Origin: Syntrophales bacterium | GTDB taxonomy: Bacteria; Desulfobacterota; Syntrophia; Syntrophales; UBA6807 | Direction: 5' to 3' | NCBI GenBank assembly: GCA_040767195.1 | Contig: JAXGPA010000001.1 | Location: forward strand, 224,001-288,000 | DNA: 64,000 nucleotides | Shown: in pieces, positions 7,066 through 37,983 of the stretch | Layout of the letters: every line of letters starts with the position of its first letter | Position numbering within the stretch: position 1 is the stretch's first letter | Program-made: the position numbers and the translations under genes | The notes under the pieces: model-generated | What the model was told of the DNA's origin: nothing | What the model saw: only the letters and a program-made list of their open reading frames with translations | Databases searched by the model: none

Positions 7066-7653
7066 ATGAAAACCCAGCGGACGACGGAAACGGTGGAACG
7101 GGACCTGGGAAAGTTCTTCCGGGAAAAGGGAAGGATGCCCACCTACTCGGAAATGATGAAACTTTTCGGGGTCCGTTCGAAGAGCGCCGTTCACTTCTGG
7201 ATTCGAAAGCTTCTTGACAGCGGTCGCCTGAAAAAGGATGACCGGGGGTTCCTCCGCCCCGTGAACCGTTCCTTTTTCTTCCCCCTGGTCGGCGAGGTGC
7301 CCGCGGGATTTCCCTCCCCGGCGGAAGAGGAACTTCGGGACATCCTTTCCTTCGACGAGTATCTTGTCGACCGCCCGGAGGCCTCCTTTGTCCTTCGCGT
7401 CCGGGGGGATTCCATGACCGGCGAGGGGATCAAGGCGGGAGACCTGGTCATCGTGGAAAGGGGGCGGGAACCCCGGAACGGCGATGTCATCGTGGCGGAG
7501 GTGGACGGGGAATGGACCATGAAATATTTCCGGAAAAAAGGGACCGACGTGACCCTGGAGGCGGCGAACCCCGCCTATCCCCCCGTGAGGCCCCGGGAGG
7601 AACTCCGGATCGCCGGGGTGGTCACGGCGGTAATCCGGAAGTACCACCGGTGA
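7066..7653 (+). CDS. lexA: LexA-family repressor (HTH + S24 peptidase) with UmuD-like cleavage region
   Basis: MPTYSEMMKLFGVRSKSAVHFWI HTH; VPAGFPSPAEE (Ala-Gly site); GDSM catalytic Ser; TMKY catalytic Lys. Confidence 0.88.
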   Translation: MKTQRTTETVERDLGKFFREKGRMPTYSEMMKLFGVRSKSAVHFWIRKLLDSGRLKKDDRGFLRPVNRSFFFPLVGEVPAGFPSPAEEELRDILSFDEYLVDRPEASFVLRVRGDSMTGEGIKAGDLVIVERGREPRNGDVIVAEVDGEWTMKYFRKKGTDVTLEAANPAYPPVRPREELRIAGVVTAVIRKYHR

Positions 7654-7663
7654 GGATCCCGCC

Positions 7664-8971
7664 ATGACGGATCTCATCTTCAGCCTTCGTTCCTGGCCCC
7701 GGGCCATTCTTCACCTGGACGGCGACGCCTTCTTCACCTCCTGCGAGGAGGCCATCCACCCCGAACTCCGGGGAAGGCCCCTCATCACCGGGGGAGAGCG
7801 GGGAATCGTGGCCTGCGCCAGTTACGCCGCCAAGAAGCTCGGTGTGAAGCGGGGGGTTCCCCTCCACGAGGCGAAAAAGATCTGTCCCGGCCTGATCGTT
7901 CTCCCGTCGGACTACGAAACCTACAGCCTCTTCTCCCGGCGGATGTTCCAGATCATGAGGCGGTACACCCCCCAGGTGGAAGAGTATTCCATCGATGAGG
8001 CCTTCGCCGATCTCACGGGCCTCCGGAGAGCCTCCCGGGCCTCCTATGAAAAAATCGCCGCCGCCATGAGGGAGACGATCCGCAAAGAGCTGGGAATCAC
8101 CGTCACCGCCGGTCTCAGCGTCACCAAGGTGCTCGCCAAGATCGCCTCGAAACACCGGAAGCCCGACGGCTTCACCGCTATCCCCGGCCGGGACATCCCC
8201 CGGTATCTCGCCGGCCTTCCCCTGGAGGCCGTGTGGGGCATCGGCCCCGCCACGGCGAATCACCTCTTAAAGCTCGGGGCCCGGACGGCCCTGGATTTCG
8301 CCCGGTTTTCCGAGTACCGGGTCAGGAAGAACTTCACCAAGCCGGGCGTCGAAATCTGGCGGGAACTCCGGGGGGAATCAGTCTATCCCGTCGTTTCGGA
8401 AGCCAAAAGCACCTATGCCTCCATCAGCAAGACGAAAACCTTCGCCCCCTCCTCGGGAGACGGGGAATACCTTTTCGCCCAGCTCCTCCGGAATGTCGAG
8501 TCGGCATGCATCAAGGCCCGGCGGTACAACCTGGCCCCCCGAAGGATCGCCCTCTTCCTGAAAACAGACACTTTCGCCGTGGCGGGCCTCGAGGCCCGTC
8601 TCATCCGGCCTTCCTCCCGTCCCCTGGAGCTGGCCGGGATATCCCGGGAAATCTTCGGCGCCCTTTACCGGCCGGGGCAACGGTACCGCGCCACGGGGGT
8701 GATCCTCCTGGAACTCATGGAAAACCGGAACGTCCAGCTCTCCCTCTTTGAAGACCCCCTGCGGATCGAAAAGGTGGAACGGCTCTACGAAGCGGCGGAC
8801 CGGCTCTCGGAAAAATACGGGAAACACGCCCTTCACCTGGGGGGGTCCCACCTGATCGACCGGCGGGGAAAGGGGAAACGGGGGGAGCCGACGGTCCGCG
8901 AATCCACCCGTCTTTTCGGGGAAACGGAAAGAAAACACCTGGGACTTCCCATTCTCCACGTGGATGTGTAA
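7664..8971 (+). CDS. Y-family translesion DNA polymerase (DinB/UmuC-like)
   Basis: ILHLDGDAFFTSCE, SYAAK, YSIDEAF, VWGIG, clamp-binding QLSLF. Confidence 0.93.
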   Translation: MTDLIFSLRSWPRAILHLDGDAFFTSCEEAIHPELRGRPLITGGERGIVACASYAAKKLGVKRGVPLHEAKKICPGLIVLPSDYETYSLFSRRMFQIMRRYTPQVEEYSIDEAFADLTGLRRASRASYEKIAAAMRETIRKELGITVTAGLSVTKVLAKIASKHRKPDGFTAIPGRDIPRYLAGLPLEAVWGIGPATANHLLKLGARTALDFARFSEYRVRKNFTKPGVEIWRELRGESVYPVVSEAKSTYASISKTKTFAPSSGDGEYLFAQLLRNVESACIKARRYNLAPRRIALFLKTDTFAVAGLEARLIRPSSRPLELAGISREIFGALYRPGQRYRATGVILLELMENRNVQLSLFEDPLRIEKVERLYEAADRLSEKYGKHALHLGGSHLIDRRGKGKRGEPTVRESTRLFGETERKHLGLPILHVDV

Positions 8972-9262: not shown

Positions 9263-9931
9263 ATGACGGAACCTGACGTCTTTCCATTCATTCCCGTGCG
9301 TGTCCCTCCCGTCCAGGTCTGGAAACGCCTGGGATACCGGAAGGAAACGACTTTTCCCGGGGGGGAGCAGGCCGTCAGCCTCCGGGAAACCCTCACGGAG
9401 GCCTTCTCTCTCATGGAAATTCAGGGGGCCGGCCTTCCCGCCTCCTTCCATTCGCCCCGTCCCGGGGATATCCGTCTTGCCGGAAAAGCGGTTTTCCGAA
9501 GCGGCGATCTCGCCCGTTTCCTCCGGGGATGCGATGATCTTCTCCTCATGGGCGCCACGGCGGGACAGGCGATCATGACGGCTATCGAGGAGGCTTCCAG
9601 GGCCGGCCGGATGACCCGGGCCGCCGTCCTGGACGCCGCGGCGAGCGAGGCCGTCGACGGGGCCCTGGACTGGATCACGGGATATTACCGCCGAAAGCTC
9701 CTTCGGAAACTGAAGACCGTCACGGGACGCCGTTTCTCCGCCGGCTACGGCGATTTTTCCCTGGAGAACCAGAAGATCATTTACGAACTCCTCAGGCTCG
9801 GGGATCTTTCCGTTACATTGACGGACACCTTCATGCTCATCCCTGAGAAGTCCGTCACCGCCGTGGCGGGCATCATGAATATCGACAACCGGGAGGCCCT
9901 TACCGATGAAGCGGAAAAAAACCCTTCTTGA
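9263..9931 (+). CDS. stand-alone B12-dependent methionine synthase reactivation (AdoMet-binding) domain
   Basis: LLMGATAG, AVLDAAASEAVD, RFSAGYGDFSLENQ, MLIPEKSVTAVAG; overlaps start of metH. Confidence 0.85.
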   Translation: MTEPDVFPFIPVRVPPVQVWKRLGYRKETTFPGGEQAVSLRETLTEAFSLMEIQGAGLPASFHSPRPGDIRLAGKAVFRSGDLARFLRGCDDLLLMGATAGQAIMTAIEEASRAGRMTRAAVLDAAASEAVDGALDWITGYYRRKLLRKLKTVTGRRFSAGYGDFSLENQKIIYELLRLGDLSVTLTDTFMLIPEKSVTAVAGIMNIDNREALTDEAEKNPS

Positions 9932-12317
9932 ACGGTGGAAGAAACGAATCGTCGTCCTAGACGGGGCCATGGGAACGGAGCTCCAGAAAAGGGGGCTTCC
10001 CGCCGGCGCATGCCCGGAGGTCTGGTGTCTCGAACACCCCGAAGTCATCGGGGAGGTACACCGGAATTACCGTGATGCCGGTTCCGACGTGGTCTACACA
10101 GGAACGTTCGGGGCCAACCGGCTGAAACTCGCCGAGTACGGCGTCACGAACGTATTTGACATCAACAGGAAGCTTGCCCTCACTGCGCGGACGGCCGTCG
10201 GTCCCGACGGCCTTGTGGCCGGGGACATCGGTCCCACGGGCCGGTTTGTCGAACCCTTCGGCGATCTCCCTTTCGAGGACGCCGTTTCCCTCTTCAAGGA
10301 GCAGATCGGCGGCCTCGTGGCGGGAAAGGTGGATCTTCTCGTCATCGAGACGATCCTGGACATCCAGGAGGCCCGGGCGGCTCTCATCGCCGCCCGGGAG
10401 CTGACGGACGGTTTTGTCATGGTGACCATGACCTTCGAGGAGGACGGGAAAACCCTGAACGGAACGGACCCGGTCACGGCCCTGGTCACTCTCCAGGGCC
10501 TGGGAGCCGACGCCGTGGGCTGCAACTGTTCCGCCGGCCCCGTTGAAATGATCCACTGGATCGCCGCCATGAAGCCTTACGCCACCGTTCCCCTGGTGGC
10601 CAAACCGAACGCCGGAATGCCCGAACTGAGGGACGGACGGACGGTCTTTCCCATGGGTCCCAGTGAATTCGCCCGTCATGGAAAAGAATTCGCTTCCCTG
10701 GGCATCGGGTTCATCGGCGGCTGCTGCGGCTCCGCGCCGGAACACATCCGGGCCCTGGCCGGGGAAATCAATCCCCTGGAGCGGGTCGAACCGGCCCGCC
10801 TGTCGCTCGGCGCCGTCACATCCGCCCGGAAGACGGTGATTTTCGAGGAAACGGAGGGCCTTGTCGTCATCGGAGAGCGCCTGAACCCCACGGGCAAAAA
10901 GACCCTCCAGGAGGAACTCCGGGCGGGAAAATGGGGTTTTGTCCGGTCCGCGGCCCTGGAACAGGAAGAGAAAGGAGCCCGCCTTCTCGATGTGAACGCC
11001 GCCGTGCCGGGGGAGGACGAGGTAGAACTTCTCAGCGGCCTGGTGTCCTTTCTTTCCCGGACAAGCGACCTCCCCCTGGTCATCGATTCGGCCCACCCCG
11101 GGGCCGTCGAAAAGGCTCTTCGCCTGTATCCCGGCCGGGCCCTTCTCAATTCCATCTCGGGAGAAAAGGCGAAGATAGGGGAGATCCTTCCCGTGGCGGC
11201 CCGTTACGGGACCCCCTTCATTCTCCTTCCCGTTGACGACAAGGGGGTGCCGGAAACCTGGCAAGAAAGGCGCGAGGTGATCCGGCGGGTCTGGAAGACC
11301 GCCCGAAGCCGGGGGTTCAGCCGGGATGACCTGATCGTTGACGGCCTCGTTATGACCGTTTCTTCCAACCCCGGGGCTCCCCGGGAAACCCTTGAAACGA
11401 TCCGCTGGTCCACGGACACCTTCCGGTGCCGGACCCTGGTCGGGCTTTCCAACGTGTCTTTCGGCCTGCCCGAAAGAAAATGGCTCAACGGCGCCTTCCT
11501 GGCCATGGCGGCTTCCCGGGGAGCCCGGTTCGTCATCGCCAACCCGGCAGAGCAGGAGGTAATGGCCCTGATCGCCGCCGCCGACATGCTCCTGGGAGAG
11601 GACCGCCAGGCCCGGCGCTACGTTTCCCGTTTCGCCGGGACGAAGAGCGCCGAAAAAGCGCCCCGGGACAGGGAGGAGAAAGCGCCCGGAGAGGCGGTCT
11701 TCGATGTCGTCGTCGAGGGCCGGGTGGAGGACATGGAGGAGAGCCTTCTTCGAGCCCTGGGGAAAGGGCTTCCTCCGGGGCGGATCGTCCAGGCGTTCAT
11801 GATCCCCGCCATCACCCGGGTAGGAGAGCTTTACGAGGAGCGGCGATACTTCCTCCCCCAGCTTCTGTCGAGCGCCGAGGCCATGAAGAAGGGGCTTCGC
11901 TTTTTGGAGCCGGAGCTGAGGGCCCGCGGCGAAAGGAGGAAATCCCGGGGAAGAATCGTCCTCGCCACCGTCCAGGGGGACATCCACGACATCGGCAAGA
12001 ACATCGTGTCTCTGCTTCTGGAGAACCAGGGATTTGAGATCATCGATCTCGGGAAGGACGTCTCCGCCGAGAGAATCGTCGCCGAAATCAGGCGGACCCG
12101 GCCCTTTCTTACGGGGCTTTCCGCCCTCATGACGACAACGATGACCCGGATGGATGAGGTCATTCGAAAGGCGAGAGCGGAAGGGATCGACTGTCCCTTC
12201 CTCGTCGGCGGGGCCGTTTTGACCCCCTCCTATGCCCGTTCCATCGGGGCCCGTTACGCCCGGGATGGCGTCGAGGCCGTCCGGGCGGCCGAGGAAATCC
12301 TCGGCGAGAGGTCATAA
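9906..12317 (+). CDS. metH: cobalamin-dependent methionine synthase (Hcy-, pterin- and B12-binding domains; no C-terminal reactivation domain)
   Basis: LDGAMGTELQ, GCNC, GGCCG Zn ligands, IGERLNPTGKK, GLSNVSFG, GDIHDIGKNIV, GLSALMTTT. Confidence 0.93.
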   Translation: MKRKKTLLERWKKRIVVLDGAMGTELQKRGLPAGACPEVWCLEHPEVIGEVHRNYRDAGSDVVYTGTFGANRLKLAEYGVTNVFDINRKLALTARTAVGPDGLVAGDIGPTGRFVEPFGDLPFEDAVSLFKEQIGGLVAGKVDLLVIETILDIQEARAALIAARELTDGFVMVTMTFEEDGKTLNGTDPVTALVTLQGLGADAVGCNCSAGPVEMIHWIAAMKPYATVPLVAKPNAGMPELRDGRTVFPMGPSEFARHGKEFASLGIGFIGGCCGSAPEHIRALAGEINPLERVEPARLSLGAVTSARKTVIFEETEGLVVIGERLNPTGKKTLQEELRAGKWGFVRSAALEQEEKGARLLDVNAAVPGEDEVELLSGLVSFLSRTSDLPLVIDSAHPGAVEKALRLYPGRALLNSISGEKAKIGEILPVAARYGTPFILLPVDDKGVPETWQERREVIRRVWKTARSRGFSRDDLIVDGLVMTVSSNPGAPRETLETIRWSTDTFRCRTLVGLSNVSFGLPERKWLNGAFLAMAASRGARFVIANPAEQEVMALIAAADMLLGEDRQARRYVSRFAGTKSAEKAPRDREEKAPGEAVFDVVVEGRVEDMEESLLRALGKGLPPGRIVQAFMIPAITRVGELYEERRYFLPQLLSSAEAMKKGLRFLEPELRARGERRKSRGRIVLATVQGDIHDIGKNIVSLLLENQGFEIIDLGKDVSAERIVAEIRRTRPFLTGLSALMTTTMTRMDEVIRKARAEGIDCPFLVGGAVLTPSYARSIGARYARDGVEAVRAAEEILGERS

Positions 12318-28434: not shown

Positions 28435-28463
28435 TTGACAGGATGAGGAGAGGAAATTATAAT
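28435..28463 (+). promoter_or_regulatory. perfect consensus sigma70 promoter TTGACA-N17-TATAAT
   Basis: TTGACA 28435-28440, TATAAT 28458-28463. Confidence 0.9.
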
Positions 28464-28605
28464 AAAAGCGAAAGAGTCGCCACAGGAATCGGAACGGGTG
28501 TTCCTGCAGGGGGAACGCCGGTGGCGGCTTCGGGACCCTTACCGGGCAGGAGGCGGCAAGGGTCTGCGAAGGGTGAATCCACTCCAGGGAAAGGAGGGAA
28601 AGACC

Positions 28606-28899
28606 ATGAAAGCGGGTGTTGTTTTTACCGGAACCGGTCCCATTCTCATCCTCACGTCCTACGATTCACTGACCGACGCGGCATTCGTCGAGAAGATGGC
28701 CATGAAGGGAATCAAGAAGTTCATTGCCTACGAGATTCCCGTGGAAAAGGTCAAGGGCAGGTACAGGGCTCAGTTCGACATCATTCTCGGCGACCTCAAC
28801 CAGACGGACGACCTTCGGGTCCTTGACTACAACGGTCACAACATCTTCTATAATTTCAACTTTTCGGAACTGGGAGAGCCCATTCTCTATGAGCCCTGA
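28606..28899 (+). CDS. hypothetical protein (97 aa)
   Basis: ATG at 28606 after AAGGAGG; has its own promoter and terminator. Confidence 0.8.
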   Translation: MKAGVVFTGTGPILILTSYDSLTDAAFVEKMAMKGIKKFIAYEIPVEKVKGRYRAQFDIILGDLNQTDDLRVLDYNGHNIFYNFNFSELGEPILYEP

Positions 28900-28946: not shown

Positions 28947-28993
28947 CTGAGAAAAAAAGGCCCGTGCCGTCGGCACGGGCCTTTTTTTCTCAG
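28947..28993. terminator. bidirectional intrinsic terminator
   Basis: Perfect 23-bp inverted repeat with A7/T7 tracts between convergent genes. Confidence 0.88.
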
Positions 28994-30480
28994 TAGTCGG
29001 GACGGACCCACTCGGGGAAAAACGCCGGTCTCATGGGATCCCACCGCCCCACGAGACGGTCGAAAGAGGGATGGGGCAGGGTTTCCTTGAAGATCCTGTA
29101 GTAGTAAAGTTCCTCCACCGACGCGAGCCGGGGGTTTCCCTCCAGGGCGTTGAAACGTTTCAGTTCATCCTCCGATATGGCTTTTTCCGCCTGCCGGCGC
29201 ATGATGTAGGCGACCCCGGACCCCTGGGCGAAGAAGCGCTTCGTCTGGTAGATGATGTGGTCCGGAAGGACGCCTTCGAATGCTCCGCGAAGAATCCATT
29301 TGCCCGTCTGTTCATGGCCGTGTATCTTGCTTTCCAGGGGAATTTTCAGGGCAAAGTCCATGACCTTTCCGTCCAGGAAAGGCGTCCGGCTTTCATAGGA
29401 ATTGGCGGCGTTCAACCGGTCCAGTCTCTGCAGGGCCGTGTTGTGGGCGACCTGGATGAGATACTCGATGATGCCGGCCCGCTCCTCGGGATTGCGGGCC
29501 TCCTTGTACTGGCCGTCATACCCTCCGAAAAATTCGTCCGCACCCTCGCCGGTGAGGACGCACTTCGCCTTGCCTTTGATGAAACGCCCGGCCAGGAAAT
29601 TGGCGATCGCCCCGTGAACGCAGCTTTCTTCATACATTTCCTGGTGGCGGATGGCCTGAGGCAGGATCTCTTCGATTTCCCTCTCACCGAACATGAGAAT
29701 CTCGTGTTTCAAACCCAGACAGGCGGCCACGTCTTTCGCCAGGGGAAGATCCTGCCCTTCCTCCATGCTTACGGTGAAGCAGGCGATGTCGGGCTTTATC
29801 TCCCGGGCCATCCAGGCGATGAGGCTGCTGTCCAGGCCGCCGCTGAGAAGGACCCCCGTGACGGCCTGGTCCCGCATGCGTTTTTCCGTCGCTTCCACGA
29901 GGAGGTCCCTGACGACTTTCCGCGCCTGTTCTTCACTCTCGTATTCCGGCGTTTCGACCGCTTCGTTTTTATACCGGCGAAAACCCGTCTCCCGGGAATA
30001 AACGTAGCCCGGGGGGAAGTGCCGGATGTTGAAGCTGATGTCAACCAGGGCTTTCGCTTCCGAAGCGAAACACAGGTTTCCGTCACCGTCGTTCCCGTAA
30101 TAGAGGGGCTTGATGCCTGCCCCATCCCGGGCGAGAATAAGGCGGTTCCCATCGGCTACGGCGCACGCGAAGTCACCGTCCACCCGGGCCGCGAAGCCGT
30201 CGCCGTATCTGTCGTAAAGGTCGAGAATCACCGCGGCGTCGCTTTCGCTTTTTCCCGCTCCGTTGTACACCCGGCCGTCCAGGGCGACGGCCCGGGCCCC
30301 TCTCGACGCCCAGTGGGAAAGGCCCGGGCGGGTGCCCCCCACCTTCAGTTCGTTGCATCCTATGTGGACGGTACCATTTCCATGCTTGCACGTTTCATCG
30401 GGACCCCGATACCGGATTTTCTCAAGCATCCGGTCCAGGGTTCCCCCGTCCTTTCCTAAAACACCTGCGATTCCCGCCAT
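28990..30480 (-). CDS. asparagine synthetase B-like ATP-dependent amide ligase, glutaminase site degenerate
   Basis: RGPD, RDGAGIKPLYY, FASEAKAL, LLSGGLDSS, TGEGADEFFGGY, ESRTPFLD; N-terminus MAGI rather than MCGI. Confidence 0.88.
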   Translation of the reverse strand: MAGIAGVLGKDGGTLDRMLEKIRYRGPDETCKHGNGTVHIGCNELKVGGTRPGLSHWASRGARAVALDGRVYNGAGKSESDAAVILDLYDRYGDGFAARVDGDFACAVADGNRLILARDGAGIKPLYYGNDGDGNLCFASEAKALVDISFNIRHFPPGYVYSRETGFRRYKNEAVETPEYESEEQARKVVRDLLVEATEKRMRDQAVTGVLLSGGLDSSLIAWMAREIKPDIACFTVSMEEGQDLPLAKDVAACLGLKHEILMFGEREIEEILPQAIRHQEMYEESCVHGAIANFLAGRFIKGKAKCVLTGEGADEFFGGYDGQYKEARNPEERAGIIEYLIQVAHNTALQRLDRLNAANSYESRTPFLDGKVMDFALKIPLESKIHGHEQTGKWILRGAFEGVLPDHIIYQTKRFFAQGSGVAYIMRRQAEKAISEDELKRFNALEGNPRLASVEELYYYRIFKETLPHPSFDRLVGRWDPMRPAFFPEWVRPDY

Positions 30481-30575
30481 AAGAAATCAACATCCTCCCT
30501 TGTTTTTTTCCGGCCGCTCCAACGGCTCCGCAAAATACCCCGGACAAACATTCAAGGCCCCGTCCCCCGAGTCTC

Positions 30576-31259
30576 TCACGAAGCCGACCGGTAGGAATCG
30601 AGGATGCGCACCGCGTCGAAGCCGTCGGCGCAGTAAGCGTCGGCGCCGATCTCGCGGGCGAAGTCCTCCGACACCGCGGCGCCGCCGATGAGCACCTTGA
30701 CCGATTCCCGGAGGCCGGCCGCTTTCAGGGCTTCCACGATGTCACCCATGACGAGCATGGTCGTCGTCAGGAGCGCCGATAAACCGAGAAAATCCGGCTT
30801 GTTTTCCCGGACATACGAGACAATCTTGTCCGTGGCAACGTCGATGCCGAGATCGACCACCTCGTAGCCCGCGCCTTTCAGGAGAATGGCCACGATATTT
30901 TTCCCGATGTCGTGAATGTCTCCCTTGACGGTGACGATGGCGAATTTCCCCTTCATGGCGACGTCGGACGCCTCGAGATGGGGTTTCAGAATGTCCATGG
31001 CCTCGCTCACGGCCTCGGCCGAGGCCAGCATGTCCGGGACGTAATATTCCCCGGCGTTGAATTTTTCACCCACCACCTCCATGCCGGCGGTGAGTCCGTC
31101 GGCGATGATTTTCTTTGCTGGGACTTTATTTTCCAGCGCCGCCCGGGTCAGTTCCACCACACCGGGTCCGGTGAGGGTGTCGTCGATGCCCTCGTCCTCT
31201 TCGGTCATCCGGCCTTGAATGACGTTTTCCTTCAGTCTTTCTATGATTTCGTTGTTCAT
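30576..31259 (-). CDS. methyltransferase cognate corrinoid protein
   Basis: GMEVVGEKF, GDIHDIGKNIV (DxHxxG), GLSALLTTT, IGGA. Confidence 0.95.
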   Translation of the reverse strand: MNNEIIERLKENVIQGRMTEEDEGIDDTLTGPGVVELTRAALENKVPAKKIIADGLTAGMEVVGEKFNAGEYYVPDMLASAEAVSEAMDILKPHLEASDVAMKGKFAIVTVKGDIHDIGKNIVAILLKGAGYEVVDLGIDVATDKIVSYVRENKPDFLGLSALLTTTMLVMGDIVEALKAAGLRESVKVLIGGAAVSEDFAREIGADAYCADGFDAVRILDSYRSAS

Positions 31260-32803
31260 TATCCTCTCCCTTCTTTGTAGATGTTCAGCCGTGGCAGCAG
31301 GCCTGGTATTTCACTGAATATGCGTGATGTCTTTTCGCGGTCGATGGGCTCGACGGGTTTCGCCAGGAGGGCTTTCATCCGCTCATGGGCCAGGTGAAAA
31401 ACCCGGTCGCTGCGCCTGTCTCCCTCGAAGGCATAGAGAGGGGACAGGAGACCGCTTCGCATGACTTTCCGGACGTAACCGATGAAAAGCTTCTGCGGCG
31501 TCGGCAGTACCTTTCGGATCTGCCCGAGGATTTCCTCGATCTCCCCGTCGTCGATCCGGGGAGGCCTGAGAAAATGCCTGATCATGGCGAAATGGGCGTC
31601 ATCGAGCACCGCCTGGAGAGGGGAAAAGACAGCATTGCAGTCCAGGAGACCGTAGGCGCAGTGGAGAAACTGGGGCCCGCTCATGGTGACGGTGATATTG
31701 GAGAAAAGGCGCTCGACGGATGACTGCTGACCGGGAACCATGGCATCGCTGATCCCCGAGGTCGAATAATTCGGGATCCCATAGAACCGGGCCATCTGGG
31801 TGCAGTCGATGGTGTACTGGCTCGTTTCCACGGCGCCGTATGAATCGGCGAGCGTGTCCATCCGTGTTTTTGTGGGGACCGTTCCATACAGGATGGGCGT
31901 TCCCCCGTTGACAAGCTGCCCCAGGGTGATCCCCGCGAGAACTTCCGCGTTGATCTGGGCCAGGATGCCCGCTTCCTTGATGGGGGCGGTGCTCCCCGCC
32001 TGGGGCGCCGAGGAAACCACCACGGGAAGCCCCCGGGCACAGATCTCCATGAAGGCGTCCGTCGTGTCGTCCACAAACTGGAGGGGACTCTTGACGAGAC
32101 AGCAGATGAGCGAGATTATCGGGTTTCTTTTCAGTGCCTCTTCACCGCCGGCAATGATTTCCGCCATTCTGACGACGTTATCGAGCTGGCCGAGACTGGT
32201 GAGACCGGCCTGAACGTGCTTGGTCGTGTTGTTCAGGGAGGCGAAAAACTTGTTCACGTCCTTGTTGTCCTCGGTGATGTCCCTGTCCTGGATGTTGACG
32301 TTCCGGATGAACCCGTCGAGGGTGTCCAGGTGTTCCGAAAGATGGGCGGACAGGCACAGATCGTCGACGGTTCCCCGCCGGGGGACGAACTCGGGGACCC
32401 CGATCTCCACGGACGGATCGGATTTTTTCGTATAGGGCTGAAATACCGTGTCGAGCCAGACGTTCGTTTCCGAACCAGTGATGAAGTAAACCCTCGGCTC
32501 GTCACCCTTCATGACAAGGGTGTTGTCGGGGTTGCGGGCACCCAGTGTCACCGTCTTCGGCGCCTTTTCGAGGCCGTCCTCAACCAGCCGTTCCGGAAGT
32601 TTGACGGTCCAGTGCGGCGGGTCGCTCTTTGTGACGGGCGAGACATGGGCGCCCGCGGCGGCCAGAAGGTCCGCCGCTTTCTCGTTGAAGGAGATGAGGC
32701 CCGGGTCCCGCAGAATCTCAAGGGATGCCCGGTGTATTTTTTTCACCTGCTCTCCTGTCAGCCGTTCATAGGGTTTTTCTATGACAATACCTTCTCGAGG
32801 CAC
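31259..32803 (-). CDS. MttB-superfamily (trimethylamine methyltransferase-like) enzyme, non-pyrrolysine, divergent
   Basis: IHRASLEIL, AEVLAGITLGQLVNGGTP, QMARFYGIP..SGISDAM; no in-frame TAG. Confidence 0.85.
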   Translation of the reverse strand: MPREGIVIEKPYERLTGEQVKKIHRASLEILRDPGLISFNEKAADLLAAAGAHVSPVTKSDPPHWTVKLPERLVEDGLEKAPKTVTLGARNPDNTLVMKGDEPRVYFITGSETNVWLDTVFQPYTKKSDPSVEIGVPEFVPRRGTVDDLCLSAHLSEHLDTLDGFIRNVNIQDRDITEDNKDVNKFFASLNNTTKHVQAGLTSLGQLDNVVRMAEIIAGGEEALKRNPIISLICCLVKSPLQFVDDTTDAFMEICARGLPVVVSSAPQAGSTAPIKEAGILAQINAEVLAGITLGQLVNGGTPILYGTVPTKTRMDTLADSYGAVETSQYTIDCTQMARFYGIPNYSTSGISDAMVPGQQSSVERLFSNITVTMSGPQFLHCAYGLLDCNAVFSPLQAVLDDAHFAMIRHFLRPPRIDDGEIEEILGQIRKVLPTPQKLFIGYVRKVMRSGLLSPLYAFEGDRRSDRVFHLAHERMKALLAKPVEPIDREKTSRIFSEIPGLLPRLNIYKEGRG

Positions 32804-32834
32804 TTCTTCGACCTCCTCTTTTCATGTGGGGTTT

Positions 32835-33644
32835 TCAGTCGCTGATCAGCCCTTTCCGATGGGCCCTGATGAACCCCTTGCACATGGGGTCCCGGTTGGA
32901 GAGCATGTCGGCGACCCGGACGAGACTCATCAGCCTCCTGTCCAGCGGGTTCAGGATGGCCGCGTCGAGGCCGGCCGCCGCGGCCATGAGGAAAAACGAC
33001 CGGTTGACGATCCCCCGGTTGGGCAGACCGTACGATATGTTGCTGAGCCCCATGATCGTTTTCGCCGACGGATACCGTTCCTTGATTTTTTCGATGGTTC
33101 TGAGCGTGACGAGAGCCTGGGTCGTGTCGACGGAAATGGGAAGAACGAGGGGGTCGAAATAGACCTGTTCTTCACGGACCCCCGATTTTTCAAGATGCGC
33201 CATGATGGTGCCGGCCGCCTCGAGCCGTTCTTCCACGGTCCGGGGGATTCCCCCCTCCCGCATGACGAGAGCCACGAGAAGGGCTCCCCTGTCCGCCGCC
33301 AGGGGCCCGACGGCATTCAGTCGCGCCGGTTCGGCGTCCACCGAATTGATCATCACCGTCTTGCCGTCATACCGTTCCAGGGCGGTTTTCAGGACGGCCG
33401 GGTCATCGCTGTCGATACACAGGGGCTTGTCCACGGCCTTTCTGACATGATCCACGAGCCAGGCCATGGCGGCGGCCCCGCTTTCCCAGGCCCCCCCGCC
33501 GACGCCGGCGTTGACATCGATGAAGTCGGCACCGGCCTCGGCCTGCTCCTTCGCCAGGTTCATGAGAAAGGTTTCGTCCCTGTCCTCGATGGCCCGGCCC
33601 ACGGATTTTATGGATGCGTTGATTTTTTCACCGACAATAAGCAT
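32835..33644 (-). CDS. methyltetrahydrofolate:corrinoid methyltransferase (AcsE/MtgA-like pterin-binding)
   Basis: MLIVGEKIN, IDVNAG, CIDS, MINS, FDPLV, GLSNISYGLP, GLDAAILNP. Confidence 0.93.
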   Translation of the reverse strand: MLIVGEKINASIKSVGRAIEDRDETFLMNLAKEQAEAGADFIDVNAGVGGGAWESGAAAMAWLVDHVRKAVDKPLCIDSDDPAVLKTALERYDGKTVMINSVDAEPARLNAVGPLAADRGALLVALVMREGGIPRTVEERLEAAGTIMAHLEKSGVREEQVYFDPLVLPISVDTTQALVTLRTIEKIKERYPSAKTIMGLSNISYGLPNRGIVNRSFFLMAAAAGLDAAILNPLDRRLMSLVRVADMLSNRDPMCKGFIRAHRKGLISD

Positions 33645-33656
33645 GAAGTCTTCTCC

Positions 33657-35117
33657 TCACTCAAGTAAAAGTCCCGGTATGCCCATGCGGAGCGTTTCCC
33701 TGAGAGTCTCCGGAATGTAGGACACGGGTTCACGATCGAGAACGGCCCGGACCTTTTCAGCGGCCCTGGTCTTCGTCTCCCTGGCGCCGGCCGCCTCCCA
33801 CCGGGGCCGGTCCTCCTTGTCGCTCAACTCCGGGAAAAACTGCTCCGTCCGCATGTGATGGCGGGTATGGCGGGACGAAATATAGTGTCCTCCCGGCCCG
33901 GCTTTCCTGATCAGGTCGTAGGCCAGGGTGTCGTCGTTGACGGTGATCCCCTCCACGGCCCGCATGACCATGCCGCAGATCTCGTTGTCGATGACCAGCT
34001 TGTCGTAGGAGGCGGTCATGCAGAACTCGAGAAACCCGGCGGCATCGTGGATGAAGTTCCCGCCGGCGAGAGCGACGAGCACATTGGTGACGGCCGATTC
34101 ATAACCCGCCTGGGCATCGTTCACCTTGGAATCGGACATGCCGGCCGTCGCGTAATACGGAAGCCGGTAAAACTGGGCCATCTGGGCCGCCCCGGCGTTC
34201 AGAAGTCCCATTTCGACGGATCCGGAAAGATATTTCAGGGTCCGGAGTTCGGCAACGGAAGCGACGGAACCGAAAATGGCGGGCGTCCCGGGGTTCACGA
34301 GCTGGGTCAGCATGACCCCGGCCAGCGTGTCGGCGGTGAGGACGACGAGGTTGCCCGCCAGGGTCACCGGCGAGGTGGCCCCGCAGAGGGGTTCAGCCGG
34401 CACTACCACGGGGATGCCCCTCCGGGCCGTTTCGATGGTGAGCTGCGAGTAGTGTTCATCGAGCCTGAGCGGACTGACCACGCAGGTCACCACGGAGATG
34501 AAGGGCCGTTCCCGGAGATTCCCGGCACCCCCGGCGATTTGCTCGGCCATTTTGATGACGTTCCTCACCCCTTCCCGGGTGTAGACGCCGCCCATGACAT
34601 GTTTTCTCGTGTAGTTAAGCGCCGTTCCGAACCGGTTGACGTCGACGGTTTCCCCGGGAAGCTCGTTGGGATACACGTTGAGCATGTAAAAATGAACGTT
34701 GTCGAGGACATCCACCAGCCGGGCCATGTTCCTGATGTCGCCAAGAGAGGCCGGGCGCGTGGTGTCCGAACCCGGGTCCTGGACGTTCAGGGCGGTGCCT
34801 CCCGTGCCCATGTAGACCCGCGTCCCCCCGATGTGGCAGTCCAGATCGCCCTTCTCGTCACGCCCGCAGAGGGTCACGGTGTCGGGGGCCTTCGAAATCA
34901 GGTCCTGGGCAAGCCCTGCGGGAATCCTGACGACGCATCTCTCCTCGTCGACGGCCGCCCCGGCGCTTCGAAAAAGATCACGCGCCTCGTCGAGCCGGAC
35001 CTCGATTCCCACGTCCTCAAGGACCTTGAAAACCGTCTCGTGTATCTTTCCGATATCTTCCGCGGTGAGGGGCTTATAGCGCCCCCCGGTCAATCCTTTT
35101 CTCACTTTCACTTTCAT
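33657..35117 (-). CDS. MttB-superfamily methyltransferase, non-pyrrolysine
   Basis: GATSPVTLAG, QLVNPGTP, QMAQFYRLP..AGMSDSKVNDAQAGYE, LVIDNE, GPGGHY; no in-frame TAG. Confidence 0.93.
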   Translation of the reverse strand: MKVKVRKGLTGGRYKPLTAEDIGKIHETVFKVLEDVGIEVRLDEARDLFRSAGAAVDEERCVVRIPAGLAQDLISKAPDTVTLCGRDEKGDLDCHIGGTRVYMGTGGTALNVQDPGSDTTRPASLGDIRNMARLVDVLDNVHFYMLNVYPNELPGETVDVNRFGTALNYTRKHVMGGVYTREGVRNVIKMAEQIAGGAGNLRERPFISVVTCVVSPLRLDEHYSQLTIETARRGIPVVVPAEPLCGATSPVTLAGNLVVLTADTLAGVMLTQLVNPGTPAIFGSVASVAELRTLKYLSGSVEMGLLNAGAAQMAQFYRLPYYATAGMSDSKVNDAQAGYESAVTNVLVALAGGNFIHDAAGFLEFCMTASYDKLVIDNEICGMVMRAVEGITVNDDTLAYDLIRKAGPGGHYISSRHTRHHMRTEQFFPELSDKEDRPRWEAAGARETKTRAAEKVRAVLDREPVSYIPETLRETLRMGIPGLLLE

Positions 35118-35994
35118 AAGGGGCCTTCCTGTCCATGTTAAGCTGGTTAACGATCTGGGTTACGTGATCGCTTCGGTTCATGCTGTAAAAATGGAGTCCC
35201 GGTATGCCGTTTTCGAGAAGACCCTCGCTCTGGCGAATGGCGTGTTCCATGCCGTACCGGGCGACCTCGTCGGCCCTGTCACTGACAGCCTCCAGTTGGG
35301 CGAAGAGAGGTTCGGGAATCGCCGCGCCGCAGAGAGACGCGATTTTCGCAATCTGCTTGAAATTGAAAACGGGAAAGATGCCCGGAATGATGGGAACCGC
35401 GATGCCCCGGGAAACGGCCTTGTCCCGGAACCGGTAGAAATCGTCGTTGTCGAAGAAAAGCTGGGTGATAATGAAGTCGGCGCCAGCGTCCACTTTCTTC
35501 TTCAGGTTTTCCAGGTCCGTCTCGAGGTCGGGCGCCTCCACGTGACATTCCGGATACCCGGCGACGGCAACGGAAAAATCGCCGTGCCTGTTTATGAACG
35601 TGACCAGCTCGTTGGCGTATTCGAACCCGCCGTCGCTTTTCCTGAAGGATGTTTCGCCGTTCGGCGGATCTCCCCTGAGCGCAAGAATGTTCCTGATGTT
35701 TTCCCGCTCCAGATGGCCGAGGATTTCCAGGATGTCTTTTTCCGAGGCTTCCACGCAGGTCAGATGGGTCAACACCTCCGTGCCCACGTGGTTTTTGATC
35801 CGGGAGGCGATCTCGAACGTCATTTCCTGCGTGCTGCCGCCGGCCCCGTAGGTGACGGAGATGAAATCGGGATCGATCGTCACAAGGGCGTCGATGGTGG
35901 CGAACAGTTCCCTGGTGCTTCTCTCCCGGGCGGGTGGAAAGATTTCAAATGACAACACAAGCCTGTCCTTCTGAAAGAACTCTTTTATCTTCAT
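35074..35994 (-). CDS. metF: 5,10-methylenetetrahydrofolate reductase
   Basis: SFEIFPP, SVTYGAGGS, HLTC, LALRGDPP, AGYPECH, ITQLFFD, LHFYSMN. Confidence 0.96.
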   Translation of the reverse strand: MKIKEFFQKDRLVLSFEIFPPARERSTRELFATIDALVTIDPDFISVTYGAGGSTQEMTFEIASRIKNHVGTEVLTHLTCVEASEKDILEILGHLERENIRNILALRGDPPNGETSFRKSDGGFEYANELVTFINRHGDFSVAVAGYPECHVEAPDLETDLENLKKKVDAGADFIITQLFFDNDDFYRFRDKAVSRGIAVPIIPGIFPVFNFKQIAKIASLCGAAIPEPLFAQLEAVSDRADEVARYGMEHAIRQSEGLLENGIPGLHFYSMNRSDHVTQIVNQLNMDRKAPYESESEKRIDRGAL

Positions 35995-36044
35995 TCGATA
36001 CCCCGTCTGTATGGTCTTATGAAGGGAAACGCGGCAGGGCCCGG

Positions 36045-36734
36045 TCAGGCGTCACCGTGCCGGCGCGCGTTGCAGGTTCTGTTGTCGCAGTGCGCGCACG
36101 GGTTGTAAAGACGCGGCTTGCCTTCGGCGTTCCGGCGATAGAGCCCGAAGATCCCCGAAACGGTCTTACGGGGGTGCATCAGGCAGGAAGCCGTCATCGT
36201 CACGCCGATCGAATCGGTGTCCACGAGATGAAACAGCTTCTTCTGTTCCGTGATCGGCCAGTCGCAGTACCCGGGGCTGAAACGGAGGGTGAGCCCGAAT
36301 CCTTTCTTCCCGTAGTGACGTTTCATGTGGTTGTAGAACGTGTTGACCGTGTATTCCGCTGTCAGCGACCCGAGCCGGTCCAGGATGTACGCCTCGGTCA
36401 GCTTGCCGTCATCGTTGAGCCGCGCAACCTCCTCTTCGACGGCGCTTCCGATGGTAACCACGAAGAAGACCGCCTCGTCGCAAGGCGCAAGAACTTTCGC
36501 GAGAATCGGGCTGGTGAAGGGAACCCCTTGACCGATGCGAACGGTGTCTTTTTCCATGTTTTGTATTCTTTCGACCGTGTAGGAAAGGGCCGGTGACGCG
36601 AGCTCCTGAAGGACTTCGTTGAGGTCGCCCCTTCCCCTGAACCGGAGGTCGGAGAACCGGCCGAATTCCCGCCTTTCCAGGAGGTGACCGAGTTTCTCAT
36701 GATCAAAGGATATGGTAATCTGTGGTTGAGACAT
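36045..36734 (-). CDS. second stand-alone MetH-type reactivation (AdoMet) domain with C-terminal Cys cluster
   Basis: FVVTIG, AYILDRLGS, RFSPGYCDW, MHPRKTVSGIFG, CAHCDNRTC. Confidence 0.85.
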   Translation of the reverse strand: MSQPQITISFDHEKLGHLLERREFGRFSDLRFRGRGDLNEVLQELASPALSYTVERIQNMEKDTVRIGQGVPFTSPILAKVLAPCDEAVFFVVTIGSAVEEEVARLNDDGKLTEAYILDRLGSLTAEYTVNTFYNHMKRHYGKKGFGLTLRFSPGYCDWPITEQKKLFHLVDTDSIGVTMTASCLMHPRKTVSGIFGLYRRNAEGKPRLYNPCAHCDNRTCNARRHGDA

Positions 36735-36803
36735 AGGTTACCCCTTTTTCTTCGTTCAAAAAACCTGACGCCTGCCGATCGTGATCGTGATTATGTGCGG
36801 AAG

Positions 36804-36867
36804 AATTATTGCTGCTATAATTATTTCAACTGGAAATATTTCTACAAAAAAACGCGCCGTCTGTCAA
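36804..36867 (-). promoter_or_regulatory. promoter (TTGACA-N17-TAGAAA) of the methyltransferase operon with two adjacent AT-rich dyads, probable MarR operators
   Basis: -35 at 36867-36862, -10 at 36844-36839; TATTTC-N5-GAAATA 36822-36838; AATTAT-N7-ATAATT 36804-36822. Confidence 0.7.
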
Positions 36868-36933
36868 GAAATTAAATTAACATCCCTTTATTGTTTGATA
36901 AAACTTCTGAAGGCCTGGTGCGGGGGCCACCTG

Positions 36934-37452
36934 TCAGATGGGGAGATGGGGGTCCTCGTGATGCTCTTCTTCGAGGGGCCCCACATCGAGCATGTGGGTG
37001 AGAATTCCCATATTGTGAATGATATCGTGAAGCTGGCGGGACGACAACCGCTTGAGACCATCGACGATCTTCTGCTGGATGGGAGGGGGGGCATTCCGGG
37101 CGAGAACTCTCCCCGCTTCGGTCAGTTCAATGGTGATCACCCGCCGGTCCTGTGAGCTCCGGGTGCGCTTGACCAGGCCCTTGACCTCGAGACGATCGAT
37201 GACACCCGTCAGGGTGCTCGATTTCAGCATGATCTGCCGGGCGATCCGGGAAGGCGGAAGAGGCCCCTTCTCGTACAGGGACAGGAGGCAGTTGAGCTGC
37301 GGGGCGCTCACCTGGTAGTTTTTGTTCAATTCCTTCGTGTACTGGTAACCGGCCTGCATGAGGCGGCGGATTTGATAGATGATCCGGCGGATCTGTTCCT
37401 GCTGGCGTTCCGGCCCGTCAGGTATCCCGCCGTTCTGAGTGTCTTCTTCCAT
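36934..37452 (-). CDS. MarR-family transcriptional regulator (CosR/EctR-like)
   Basis: STLTGVIDRLEVKGLVKRTRSSQDRRVITIELTEAG wHTH; ELNKNYQVSAPQL and APPPIQ resemble CosR/EctR from memory. Confidence 0.9.
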   Translation of the reverse strand: MEEDTQNGGIPDGPERQQEQIRRIIYQIRRLMQAGYQYTKELNKNYQVSAPQLNCLLSLYEKGPLPPSRIARQIMLKSSTLTGVIDRLEVKGLVKRTRSSQDRRVITIELTEAGRVLARNAPPPIQQKIVDGLKRLSSRQLHDIIHNMGILTHMLDVGPLEEEHHEDPHLPI

Positions 37453-37833: not shown

Positions 37834-37908
37834 TGGTGGTCCCACGGAGAATCGAACTCCGGTTTCAGGCGTGAGAGGCCCGCGTCCTAACCGCTAGACG
37901 ATGGGACC
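37834..37908 (-). tRNA. tRNA-Glu(CTC)
   Basis: GGTCCCATCGTCTAGCGGTTAGGACGCGGGCCTCTCACGCCTGAAACCGGAGTTCGATTCTCCGTGGGACCACCA. Confidence 0.96.
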
Positions 37909-37909
37909 A

Positions 37910-37983
37910 TGGCTGGGGGACCAGGATTCGAACCTGGGTAGCAGAATCCAGAGTCCTGAGTCCTACCGCTAGACGATCCCCCA
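37910..37983 (-). tRNA. tRNA-Gln(CTG)
   Basis: TGGGGGATCGTCTAGCGGTAGGACTCAGGACTCTGGATTCTGCTACCCAGGTTCGAATCCTGGTCCCCCAGCCA. Confidence 0.96.

Follow-up and report, generated by a model that had tools for sequence, protein, structure and literature searches.

What does a bacterium do with two divergent methyltransferases of the MttB superfamily, neither of them containing pyrrolysine, when their genes stand between modules of a methionine synthase and an asparagine synthetase-like ligase? This question is raised by an eight-gene operon of a Syntrophales bacterium (assembly GCA_040767195.1, contig JAXGPA010000001.1; host genome G000, 98.8% complete), of which we analysed positions 224,001 to 288,000 of the forward strand. 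This stretch of 64,000 nucleotides is referred to as the window. The operon is real, conserved and undescribed in the literature searched. Each part can be assigned to an established family, and as a whole the operon works like a split methionine synthase in which MttBs take the place of the acceptor module. The evidence on the direction of methyl flow favours synthesis of a methylated compound.

Organization and conservation of the operon

The first-pass annotation of the window had described eight co-oriented, tightly spaced genes, and this is borne out by the open reading frames (ORFs) and their family matches. All eight ORFs are encoded on the minus strand; from 5′ to 3′ they are marR, reactivation domain, metF, mttB-a, methyl-tetrahydrofolate (methyl-THF):corrinoid methyltransferase, mttB-b, corrinoid protein and asnB-like gene. 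The block from the reactivation gene to the asnB-like gene is tightly packed, with intergenic gaps of 50, –44, 12, 31, –1 and 95 nt. The features are as follows:

36934..37452, minus strand: MarR-family regulator, EctR/CosR-like (PF01047); accessory, 5′ of the operon promoter
36822..36867, minus strand: promoter and operator candidate, with a –35 box TTGACA at 36867–36862, a weak –10 box and a palindrome at 36822–36837 downstream
36045..36734, minus strand: stand-alone MetH-type reactivation-domain protein (PF02965, E 8.6e-9) with a C-terminal CxxCxxxxC
35074..35994, minus strand: MetF of the NAD(P)H-dependent E. coli type (TIGR00676, 341 bits, cut-off 293.7); accessory
33657..35117, minus strand: MttB-a, non-pyrrolysine MttB-superfamily methyltransferase (PF06253; TIGR02369 465 bits, below the cut-off of 525); core
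32835..33644, minus strand: methyl-THF:corrinoid methyltransferase, pterin-binding module (NF005719, 293 bits, cut-off 259), below called the folate methyltransferase
31259..32803, minus strand: MttB-b, divergent non-pyrrolysine MttB (family match; TIGR02369 252 bits; 31% identical to MttB-a); core
30576..31259, minus strand: corrinoid (B12-binding) protein (PF02310, PF02607; DIHDIG motif); core
28990..30480, minus strand: asparagine-synthetase-family amide ligase without the glutaminase Cys1, below called AsnB-star (NF006949, 333 bits, below the cut-off of 499)
28947..28993, minus strand: intrinsic terminator, a perfect 22-bp hairpin of –41.5 kcal/mol with T-runs on both sides

Eighty loci were fetched with an AsnB-star alignment. 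Of these, 69 are orthologous, and loci L085–L095, which are generic AsnB matches at 30–33%, were dropped. In all counts of neighbouring genes, loci that do not extend far enough on the side in question are excluded, and the sets anchored on AsnB-star and on MttB-b overlap and contain kin. The AsnB-star-anchored loci carry mttB-b in 56/58 cases, mttB-a in 45/47, the reactivation gene in 27/32, the folate methyltransferase gene in 19/32, metF in 7/32 and marR in 9/32. Anchoring on MttB-b gave a corrinoid-protein gene after mttB-b in 73/73 loci, mttB-a in 53/53 and an AsnB-family gene downstream of the corrinoid gene in 64/64 informative loci (44 AsnB-star, 20 of other clades), so that the predicted conservation of the asnB-like gene with the cluster holds. 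The same loci have the reactivation gene in 26/32 cases, the folate methyltransferase gene in 18/32, metF in 3/32 and marR in 5/32, and a second corrinoid gene lies upstream in 15/32. The conserved core consists of mttB-a, mttB-b and the genes for the corrinoid protein and the AsnB-family enzyme. As few loci have metF and marR, neither gene was accepted into the core; both are accessory.

AsnB-star orthologues (66–83%) occur in seven of the nine genomes of the host family and in one of the 31 others of the order. Judged by the names of the source proteins, close relatives are found in Syntrophales, Dehalococcoidia and other Thermodesulfobacteriota. Orthologues of the subfamily are present in 19 of 400 genomes of the phylum and in 28/251 and 21/301 genomes of two class samples. 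In some window-type loci (L028, L029, L030, L041, L044 and L069) the operon contains a pair of corrinoid genes, and a folate methyltransferase gene is absent. A PhnP-like metallo-beta-lactamase gene follows asnB in 15/69 and 21/80 window-type loci (L023, L026, L067 and others). Two copies are damaged: the one at L084:9132-10668 is frameshifted and decaying, and at L052:6363-9303 mttB-b is split by an inserted opposite-strand ORF.

A search of the 400 phylum genomes also identified 18 MttB-b orthologues at 45–53% identity, which define a sister form of the operon. Between the two forms, MttB-a is ∼63% and MttB-b ∼46% identical. The sister loci keep the genes for the reactivation protein, MttB-a, the folate methyltransferase, MttB-b and the corrinoid protein, followed in 17/18 (one contig ends) by a gene for a 420-aa class I S-adenosylmethionine (SAM) methyltransferase. 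After this gene stands either asnB (10/18) or a set encoding ProA, a GCS2-like ligase and a DUF362 protein (four complete, one partial). This ProA, GCS2-like and DUF362/4Fe-4S triple replaces AsnB at L098:12554-16513, L099, L100 and L106, twice together with a PutP-like symporter. Twenty further sister loci have the SAM methyltransferase in 17 cases and AsnB in 17. A homocysteine (Hcy) methyltransferase/MetF fusion is encoded in seven sister loci (L097, L103, L104, L198, L199, L201 and L213) and metK plus ahcY in six.

The SAM methyltransferase is present in 17/18 sister genomes as opposed to 2/54 window-type genomes. It was not found in the host genome, and no SAM methyltransferase is encoded in the window operon; GSMT and SDMT were not among the proteins searched for. 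The 420-aa protein belongs to no named family, has no close structure and gave two distant plasmid matches only. The PhnP-like metallo-beta-lactamase occurs also at L205:12845, the sole locus of the sister class lacking the SAM methyltransferase, and was never seen alongside that enzyme. In L113 (1-1107) and L108, a glycosyltransferase-like ORF without a Pfam match lies upstream of the sister operon; we take it to resemble glucosyl-phosphoglycerate synthase. The proteins of L097 and L103 are identical to NCBI entries named Desulfurivibrio alkaliphilus and Desulfurivibrio dismutans, respectively. The L097 operon is present in eight RNA runs of two studies (share 0.94–1.00), a measure of presence and not of level.

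Active sites of the MttB pair and the amide ligase

Neither MttB gene contains an in-frame stop, and pyrrolysine is absent from both proteins. The position that pyrrolysine (Pyl334) holds in MttB (PMC9842639) is Met in MttB-a and Met or Ile/Val across both MttBs. With no in-frame UAG and with 465 and 252 bits against the TIGR02369 cut-off of 525, a pyrrolysine-containing trimethylamine methyltransferase is ruled out.

Non-pyrrolysine members of the family offer a second comparison. According to PMC13080624, MtgB holds betaine via Tyr97, Phe356, Arg312 and His348; Arg312 is conserved in all characterised members including MtcB, MtpB, MthB and MtyB and is needed by betaine demethylases, whereas the Tyr97/Phe356 aromatic pair is specific for MtgB. 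We mapped these residues through HMMER alignments to 2QNE, with a numbering offset of 16 derived by hand. The equivalent of Arg312 is Tyr322 in MttB-a and Tyr346 in MttB-b, and Tyr occupies this position in 117/117 MttB-a and 151/153 MttB-b motif matches (redundant sets). In this residue both proteins differ from the characterised MtgB, MtcB and MtpB, and the first interpretation was not refuted by this comparison. Phe356 aligns with Cys366 in MttB-a and Asn390 in MttB-b, and the HMMER alignments show no aromatic residue at the Tyr97 position in either. His348 aligns with Asp358 (MttB-a) or Cys382 (MttB-b), each preceded by an invariant His (His357 or His381), so that the register is uncertain by one. 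An MtgB-type betaine demethylase was rejected, as the Arg312 anchor, the aromatic pair and a RACE activator in the host are all missing.

Each protein has its own invariant set: Glu242, His357 and Asp358 in MttB-a, and Glu112, Arg167, Lys238 and His381 in MttB-b. Lys238 is invariant in 59/59 sequences and is found in all sister sequences displayed. AlphaFold2 (AF2) models of MttB-a and MttB-b, with predicted local distance difference test (pLDDT) values of 78.3 and 83.8, bear out the MttB/MtgB fold, and the structural matches of MttB-b reach Z 40–43. A modelled MttB-a/MttB-b heterodimer scored 0.78, the best control 0.00, with a contact agreement of at least 91% and a pLDDT of at least 87; the score mark was attained by 116 of 157 solved pairs and by 2 of 215 mismatched pairs. 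Because the interface is the known MttB/MtgB dimer interface, this pass may be due to likeness and speaks for compatibility only. Lys238 does not stand at the pyrrolysine position and adjoins the dimer interface in this model.

The AsnB-like protein begins with MAGIAG, and the glutaminase Cys1 is replaced by Ala in 32/32 aligned orthologues. The synthetase motifs SGGLDSS and GEGADE and Lys414 are retained. An invariant His289 stands where asparagine synthetase B has the Arg of the TTIRAS loop, a residue that presumably plays a role in aspartate binding. With an adenylating synthetase domain but without Cys1 and the TTIRAS Arg, and with 333 bits against a cut-off of 499, AsnB-star was rejected as asparagine synthetase B. 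In a quick tree it forms a Cys-less clade with 100% support in the Shimodaira-Hasegawa-like approximate likelihood ratio test (SH-aLRT).

At least five AsnB clades, both with and without Cys1, occupy the same position in the operon, and Cys1 was lost in several independent clades there. In many loci a Cys-containing AsnB is the sole AsnB after the corrinoid or SAM methyltransferase gene, so the Cys-less state cannot be obligatory for the operon enzyme. Some operon AsnBs even score above the asparagine synthase B equivalog threshold (599 versus 499). Since clades with and without Cys1 are mixed at one position, the sequences point to a need for amidation, in which ammonia is probably the donor, and not for ligation of a special amine. 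The host contains at C1:823919-824038 a 40-residue remnant that is 57% identical to the C-terminus of a Cys-containing operon AsnB; a full gene for such an AsnB was not found in the host genome.

The operon resembles the MtgB/C/A system of D. hafniense (PDB 2QNE/9YCE) and MtcB, MtpB, MtyB and MthB of E. limosum in the MttB fold, the cognate corrinoid protein, the pterin-binding methyltransferase and the lack of pyrrolysine, and MthK of E. limosum is a precedent for an ATP-dependent partner enzyme. It differs from MtgB-type systems by two fixed divergent MttBs without Arg312 and the aromatic pair, by an obligatory AsnB-family partner and by a MetH-type reactivation domain in place of RamQ/RACE. 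With a split cobalamin-dependent methionine synthase it shares the reactivation, folate and B12 modules plus MetF, and, in seven sister loci, the Hcy module. A stand-alone reactivation subunit is known for the split enzyme of Thermotoga. The window operon differs in that it lacks the homocysteine-binding module and has two MttB barrels as acceptor modules. The C-terminal CxxCxxxxC of the reactivation protein (36045–36100 region) together with Cys157 suggests a metal site. The host possesses a separate split methionine synthase at 9263–12317 (plus strand), consisting of a 222-aa reactivation-like ORF, 27% identical to the operon's reactivation protein and without a Pfam match, and an 803-aa Hcy/pterin/B12 protein; a second metF is located on contig C8. 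Judged from its sequence, the operon falls outside MtgB-type systems, pyrrolysine MttB, AsnB and MetH as these are defined.

Direction of methyl flow and osmotic context

Does the operon attach methyl groups or remove them? In the host genome we found no Fhs, ACS, RACE, BCCT or MetV, while GlyA, GcvP, PurU and two OpuAC-type binding proteins are encoded. MetF of the NAD(P)H type favours methyl-THF formation. Fhs is present in 2/9 genomes with an in-operon metF versus 32/41 without, which is a hint only, as nearly all metF copies come from one order, kin are not independent, and several metagenome-assembled genomes and loci are incomplete.

More direct evidence comes from the sister form. In three sister genomes (G364, G313 and G097; 99–100% complete) MetE was not found, and the best matches to all MetH modules fall inside the operon. 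Based on these observations, the folate and corrinoid subunits of the sister operon likely carry the methyl group from THF to cobalt.

A published proteome of D. dismutans points in the same direction. According to PMC12142623, this obligate autotroph had been transferred three times on mineral medium lacking vitamins and yeast extract before its proteome was analysed, and 1,864 proteins were detected. Ranks by relative intensity-based absolute quantification (riBAQ; formate plus nitrate/sulfur disproportionation, Table S1) are 101/106 for the corrinoid protein, 233/225 for MttB-a, 239/259 for the folate methyltransferase, 396/291 for MttB-b and 463/382 for AsnB, and those of the SAM-linked proteins are 752/870 for the SAM methyltransferase, 156/79 for MetK and 165/169 for AhcY (PMC12142623). 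The riBAQ of MttB-a (1.0e-3) equals that of glutamine synthetase (1.0e-3) and is close to that of GlyA (9.8e-4). The Hcy methyltransferase subunit (9.8e-5) is ∼10-fold rarer than MttB-a, and the two MttBs lie 5- to 10-fold above it. A third MttB, encoded outside the operon, ranks 1242/1125 and is ∼16 times less abundant than MttB-a (PMC12142623). The operon proteins are thus abundant without added substrate in the sole proteome, which is of the sister form, unlike MtgB-type systems: the catabolic MthB of E. limosum is 6,400-fold induced by its substrate and nearly absent without choline, according to PMC12155760. E. limosum also takes just one methyl group off quaternary amines, which fits a SAM step for quaternisation (PMC12155760). 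Together, the proteome and the methionine synthase data favour the biosynthetic methyl flow of the first-pass annotation, whose own arguments from MetF and MarR fall, both genes being accessory.

The osmotic context starts with the regulator, which had been called CosR/EctR-like. Among 342 plasmid records, its lowest E-values are to a Vibrio MarR (7e-13) and then to a MarR whose gene is divergent from ectA in an ectABC-ask operon (1e-11). The window MarR scores 76.6 bits against the ectA-adjacent protein (30% identity), as opposed to 35.8 and 28.5 bits for two other MarRs of the host, and it shares with EctR/CosR-type regulators a C-terminal APxP(I/L)Q..M signature. The ectA-divergent match fits the first designation; the modest identity and the top match do not strengthen it: within 6 kb of the Vibrio gene, presumably a cosR, we found no osmolyte gene. 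A search of the ESM Atlas with the window MarR returned generic MarR clusters only. EctR and CosR are MarR-type repressors of ectABC-ask (PMC8313267). To them the operon's regulator is alike in family, ectA-adjacent plasmid match, signature and a palindrome beside the –10 region; it differs in its 30% identity and in that the window marR is co-oriented upstream and not divergent.

A spacer of 199 nt separates marR from the reactivation gene and contains the operon promoter, whose TTGACA is invariant in 8/8 aligned spacers; marR therefore lies upstream of this promoter. A consensus promoter scan missed it because of the weak –10 box. Just 3′ of the –10 region we identified the palindrome TATTT-N6-AAATA as a candidate operator, which is clear in the spacers of 4/7 relatives and found again 5′ of marR in three relatives. 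The window copy (36822–36837) is degenerate, with two mismatches. A genome-wide matrix scan with the palindrome gave no regulon: its 128 matches, the top ones AT-rich noise, did not single out the window site. Of the promoter, operators and terminator once assigned to the unit as its own, the hairpin terminator and the conserved promoter stand, the latter 3′ of marR, and the operator is degenerate in the window.

An OsmF/OpuC-type ATP-binding cassette (ABC) importer is encoded in or beside 6/69 and 3/80 window-type loci and 9/18 sister loci, and the binding proteins linked to the operon fall in the OsmF/OpuC/ProX group. The absence of an importer, formerly an argument for synthesis, therefore no longer counts. 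ProA, encoded in 4/18 sister loci, and the PutP-like symporter belong to the osmotic context as well. Full EctC (ectoine synthase) was found in only 3/73 genomes, nearly all of them carriers of the operon; we rejected ectoine as the carriers' usual solute. [quoted passage not shown] This context fits the making, recapturing or degrading of a solute and does not alone fix the direction.

Around the operon, a small ORF without a family match (28498–28899, plus strand) is convergent on the AsnB-star gene and shares with it the bidirectional hairpin; a perfect TTGACA-17-TATAAT promoter precedes it at 28435–28463. Directly 5′ of marR and beside a gltX-like gene lie tRNA-Gln(CTG) and tRNA-Glu(CTC) (37834–37983, minus strand), a possible integration site for the operon. 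Elsewhere in the window (7066–8971), a lexA/umuD-like gene and a Y-family polymerase gene were recognised by eye beside recA.

Proposed pathway and its rivals

We propose that methyl groups pass from methyl-THF via the corrinoid protein to an amine that is successively N-methylated by MttB-a and MttB-b and amidated by AsnB, yielding a predicted compatible solute, and we hold this scheme with slightly more confidence than doubt. MetF would make methyl-THF where no Wood-Ljungdahl branch is found, and the pterin-binding subunit would methylate the Co(I)-corrinoid. MttB-a and MttB-b, possibly as a heterodimer, would then methylate a primary and next a secondary amine, with the MetH-type domain repairing Co(II). 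AsnB-star would adenylate a carboxylate and add free ammonia to give an amide, for which the Cys-containing substitutes would take ammonia from glutamine. The product would be a neutral, N-methylated compatible solute in which the amide masks the charge of the carboxylate; our guess is an N-methylated asparagine- or glutamine-like amide.

On standard energies, the methylation of simple amines by methyl-THF releases ∼15–20 kJ/mol, and quaternary amines donate to THF. Because methyl-THF cannot quaternise downhill, one SAM step would be expected in the sister form and a dimethyl stop in the window form. The SAM methyltransferase of the sister form would add the last, quaternising methyl group, with MetK, AhcY and the Hcy methyltransferase recycling SAM, and the window form, lacking this enzyme, would end at the dimethylated product. 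The first proposal of a solute made without stoichiometric SAM would therefore apply to the window form and not to the sister form.

Two known routes are comparable. Betaine synthesis by GSMT/SDMT (PMC1224877) is similar in the proposed successive N-methylation to an osmolyte and, for the sister form, in MetK/AhcY. It differs in that here methyl-THF via B12 is the proposed donor for two steps and an amide ligase belongs to the unit. The N-acetylglutaminylglutamine amide (NAGGN) amidotransferase (TIGR03104) and N-carbamoyl-glutamine amide pathways (PMC1224877) share the proposed masking of a carboxylate by an AsnB-family enzyme and an uncharged solute. AsnB-star, however, scores 161 against a TIGR03104 cut-off of 570, has no Cys1, and its gene is found with those for B12 methyltransferases instead of an acetyltransferase and an ATP-grasp enzyme.

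Several observations weigh against synthesis of an osmolyte. Every characterised non-pyrrolysine MttB in the literature examined demethylates, and we found no description of this operon or of a biosynthetic MttB, most subscription journals lying outside our coverage. About four in ten window-type loci have no folate methyltransferase. Importers lie inside the operon in L042, L043, L065, L077 and L096, as expected for a substrate, and hydrolases recur near the window-type form (metallo-beta-lactamase in 15/69 and 21/80 loci, nitrilase-like in 11/80, isochorismatase-like in 12/80). Since the host has PurU and a separate MetH, methyl groups would have an exit, and most carriers have Fhs (52/75 over the cut-off) and RACE (24/37). 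The identity of MarR to the ectA-adjacent protein is just 30%, and the structural matches of the SAM methyltransferase are weak and mostly to carboxyl O-methyltransferases. The proteome concerns the sister form at one salinity and informs on protein abundance but on neither flux nor induction by salt. Possibly the MttBs simply ride along in an operon that is switched on as the only methionine synthase, and the window and sister forms may differ in direction.

Many of these points would be explained by catabolism or salvage, in which a methylated amine, taken up or made by the cell and other than a carboxylate of the glycine betaine type, is amidated or activated by AsnB and twice demethylated by MttB-a and MttB-b, with the methyl groups passing to THF and methionine. 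All characterised relatives work in this direction, importers and hydrolases would be accounted for, and methyl sinks exist in MetH, PurU and the widespread Fhs. The sharing of the corrinoid protein with the Hcy methyltransferase in sister loci would be consistent with it as well. A parallel is MthK, which primes choline for MthB; MthB requires this ATP-dependent enzyme (PMC12155760). We nevertheless consider it unlikely, if far from negligible, that the operon is catabolic: its proteins are abundant in an obligate autotroph without added methylamine, unlike the substrate-induced MthB (PMC12142623 and PMC12155760). One would hardly expect a SAM methyltransferase with MetK and AhcY beside enzymes that demethylate. 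The host is without Fhs, ACS and MetV, its operon MetF is of the NAD(P)H type, and the regulator resembles repressors of osmolyte synthesis.

Alternatively, the unit could be mainly a split methionine synthase or methyl-supply operon, in which the MttBs serve another acceptor, such as a thiol, or are structural and AsnB just supplies asparagine. It is the only methionine synthase found in the three sister genomes, and some of its AsnBs pass the asparagine synthase B cut-off (599 versus 499). We regard this as improbable, given that a separate MetH, accompanied by a reactivation-like gene of its own, is encoded in the host, the window operon has no Hcy domain, AsnBs of five or more clades turn up at one and the same place, and the MttBs exceed the Hcy methyltransferase subunit 5- to 10-fold (PMC12142623).

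Least probable of all is a pyrrolysine-free methylamine route, in which the ligase joins methylamine to an acid for demethylation by MttB or puts pyrroline-carboxylate on Lys238 of MttB-b to mimic pyrrolysine: the repeated loss of Cys1, the invariant Lys238 and the replacement of AsnB by ProA and a GCS2-like ligase in some sister loci would suit it, but Lys238 lies off the pyrrolysine position and adjoins the modelled dimer interface, methyl groups are poorly donated from an amide nitrogen, and the ligation of methylamine, an alternative raised at first, is weakened because Cys-containing, glutamine-using AsnBs hold the same gene position and point to plain ammonia amidation. Moreover, no methylamine was in the medium in which the proteins are abundant (PMC12142623).

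Taken together, the first interpretation of the locus is partly supported. The broader form of our proposal is a widespread osmolyte pathway of anaerobes, in which the MttB pair are B12-dependent N-methylases fed by methyl-THF, an AsnB-family ligase neutralises the product and an optional SAM enzyme quaternises it; we judge its prospects a little short of even. If true, it would be the first biosynthetic use of the MttB family, so far known only for methyl removal. In sediment metagenomes, MttB genes are routinely taken to indicate that methylamines or betaine are consumed. For these genomes this conclusion would be wrong: many of the “trimethylamine methyltransferase” genes known from sediment genomes would mark solute synthesis and not methylamine use. 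The pathway would provide energy-limited anaerobes with cheap methylated osmolytes, sparing most or all of the SAM of known betaine synthesis, a route put at 36 ATP per betaine by a value that PMC1224877 cites as unpublished. It would also offer an explanation of how D. alkaliphilus withstands the salt of soda lakes although no ectoine or betaine genes are known from it. As the sister operon occurs in cultured species, direct tests are possible.

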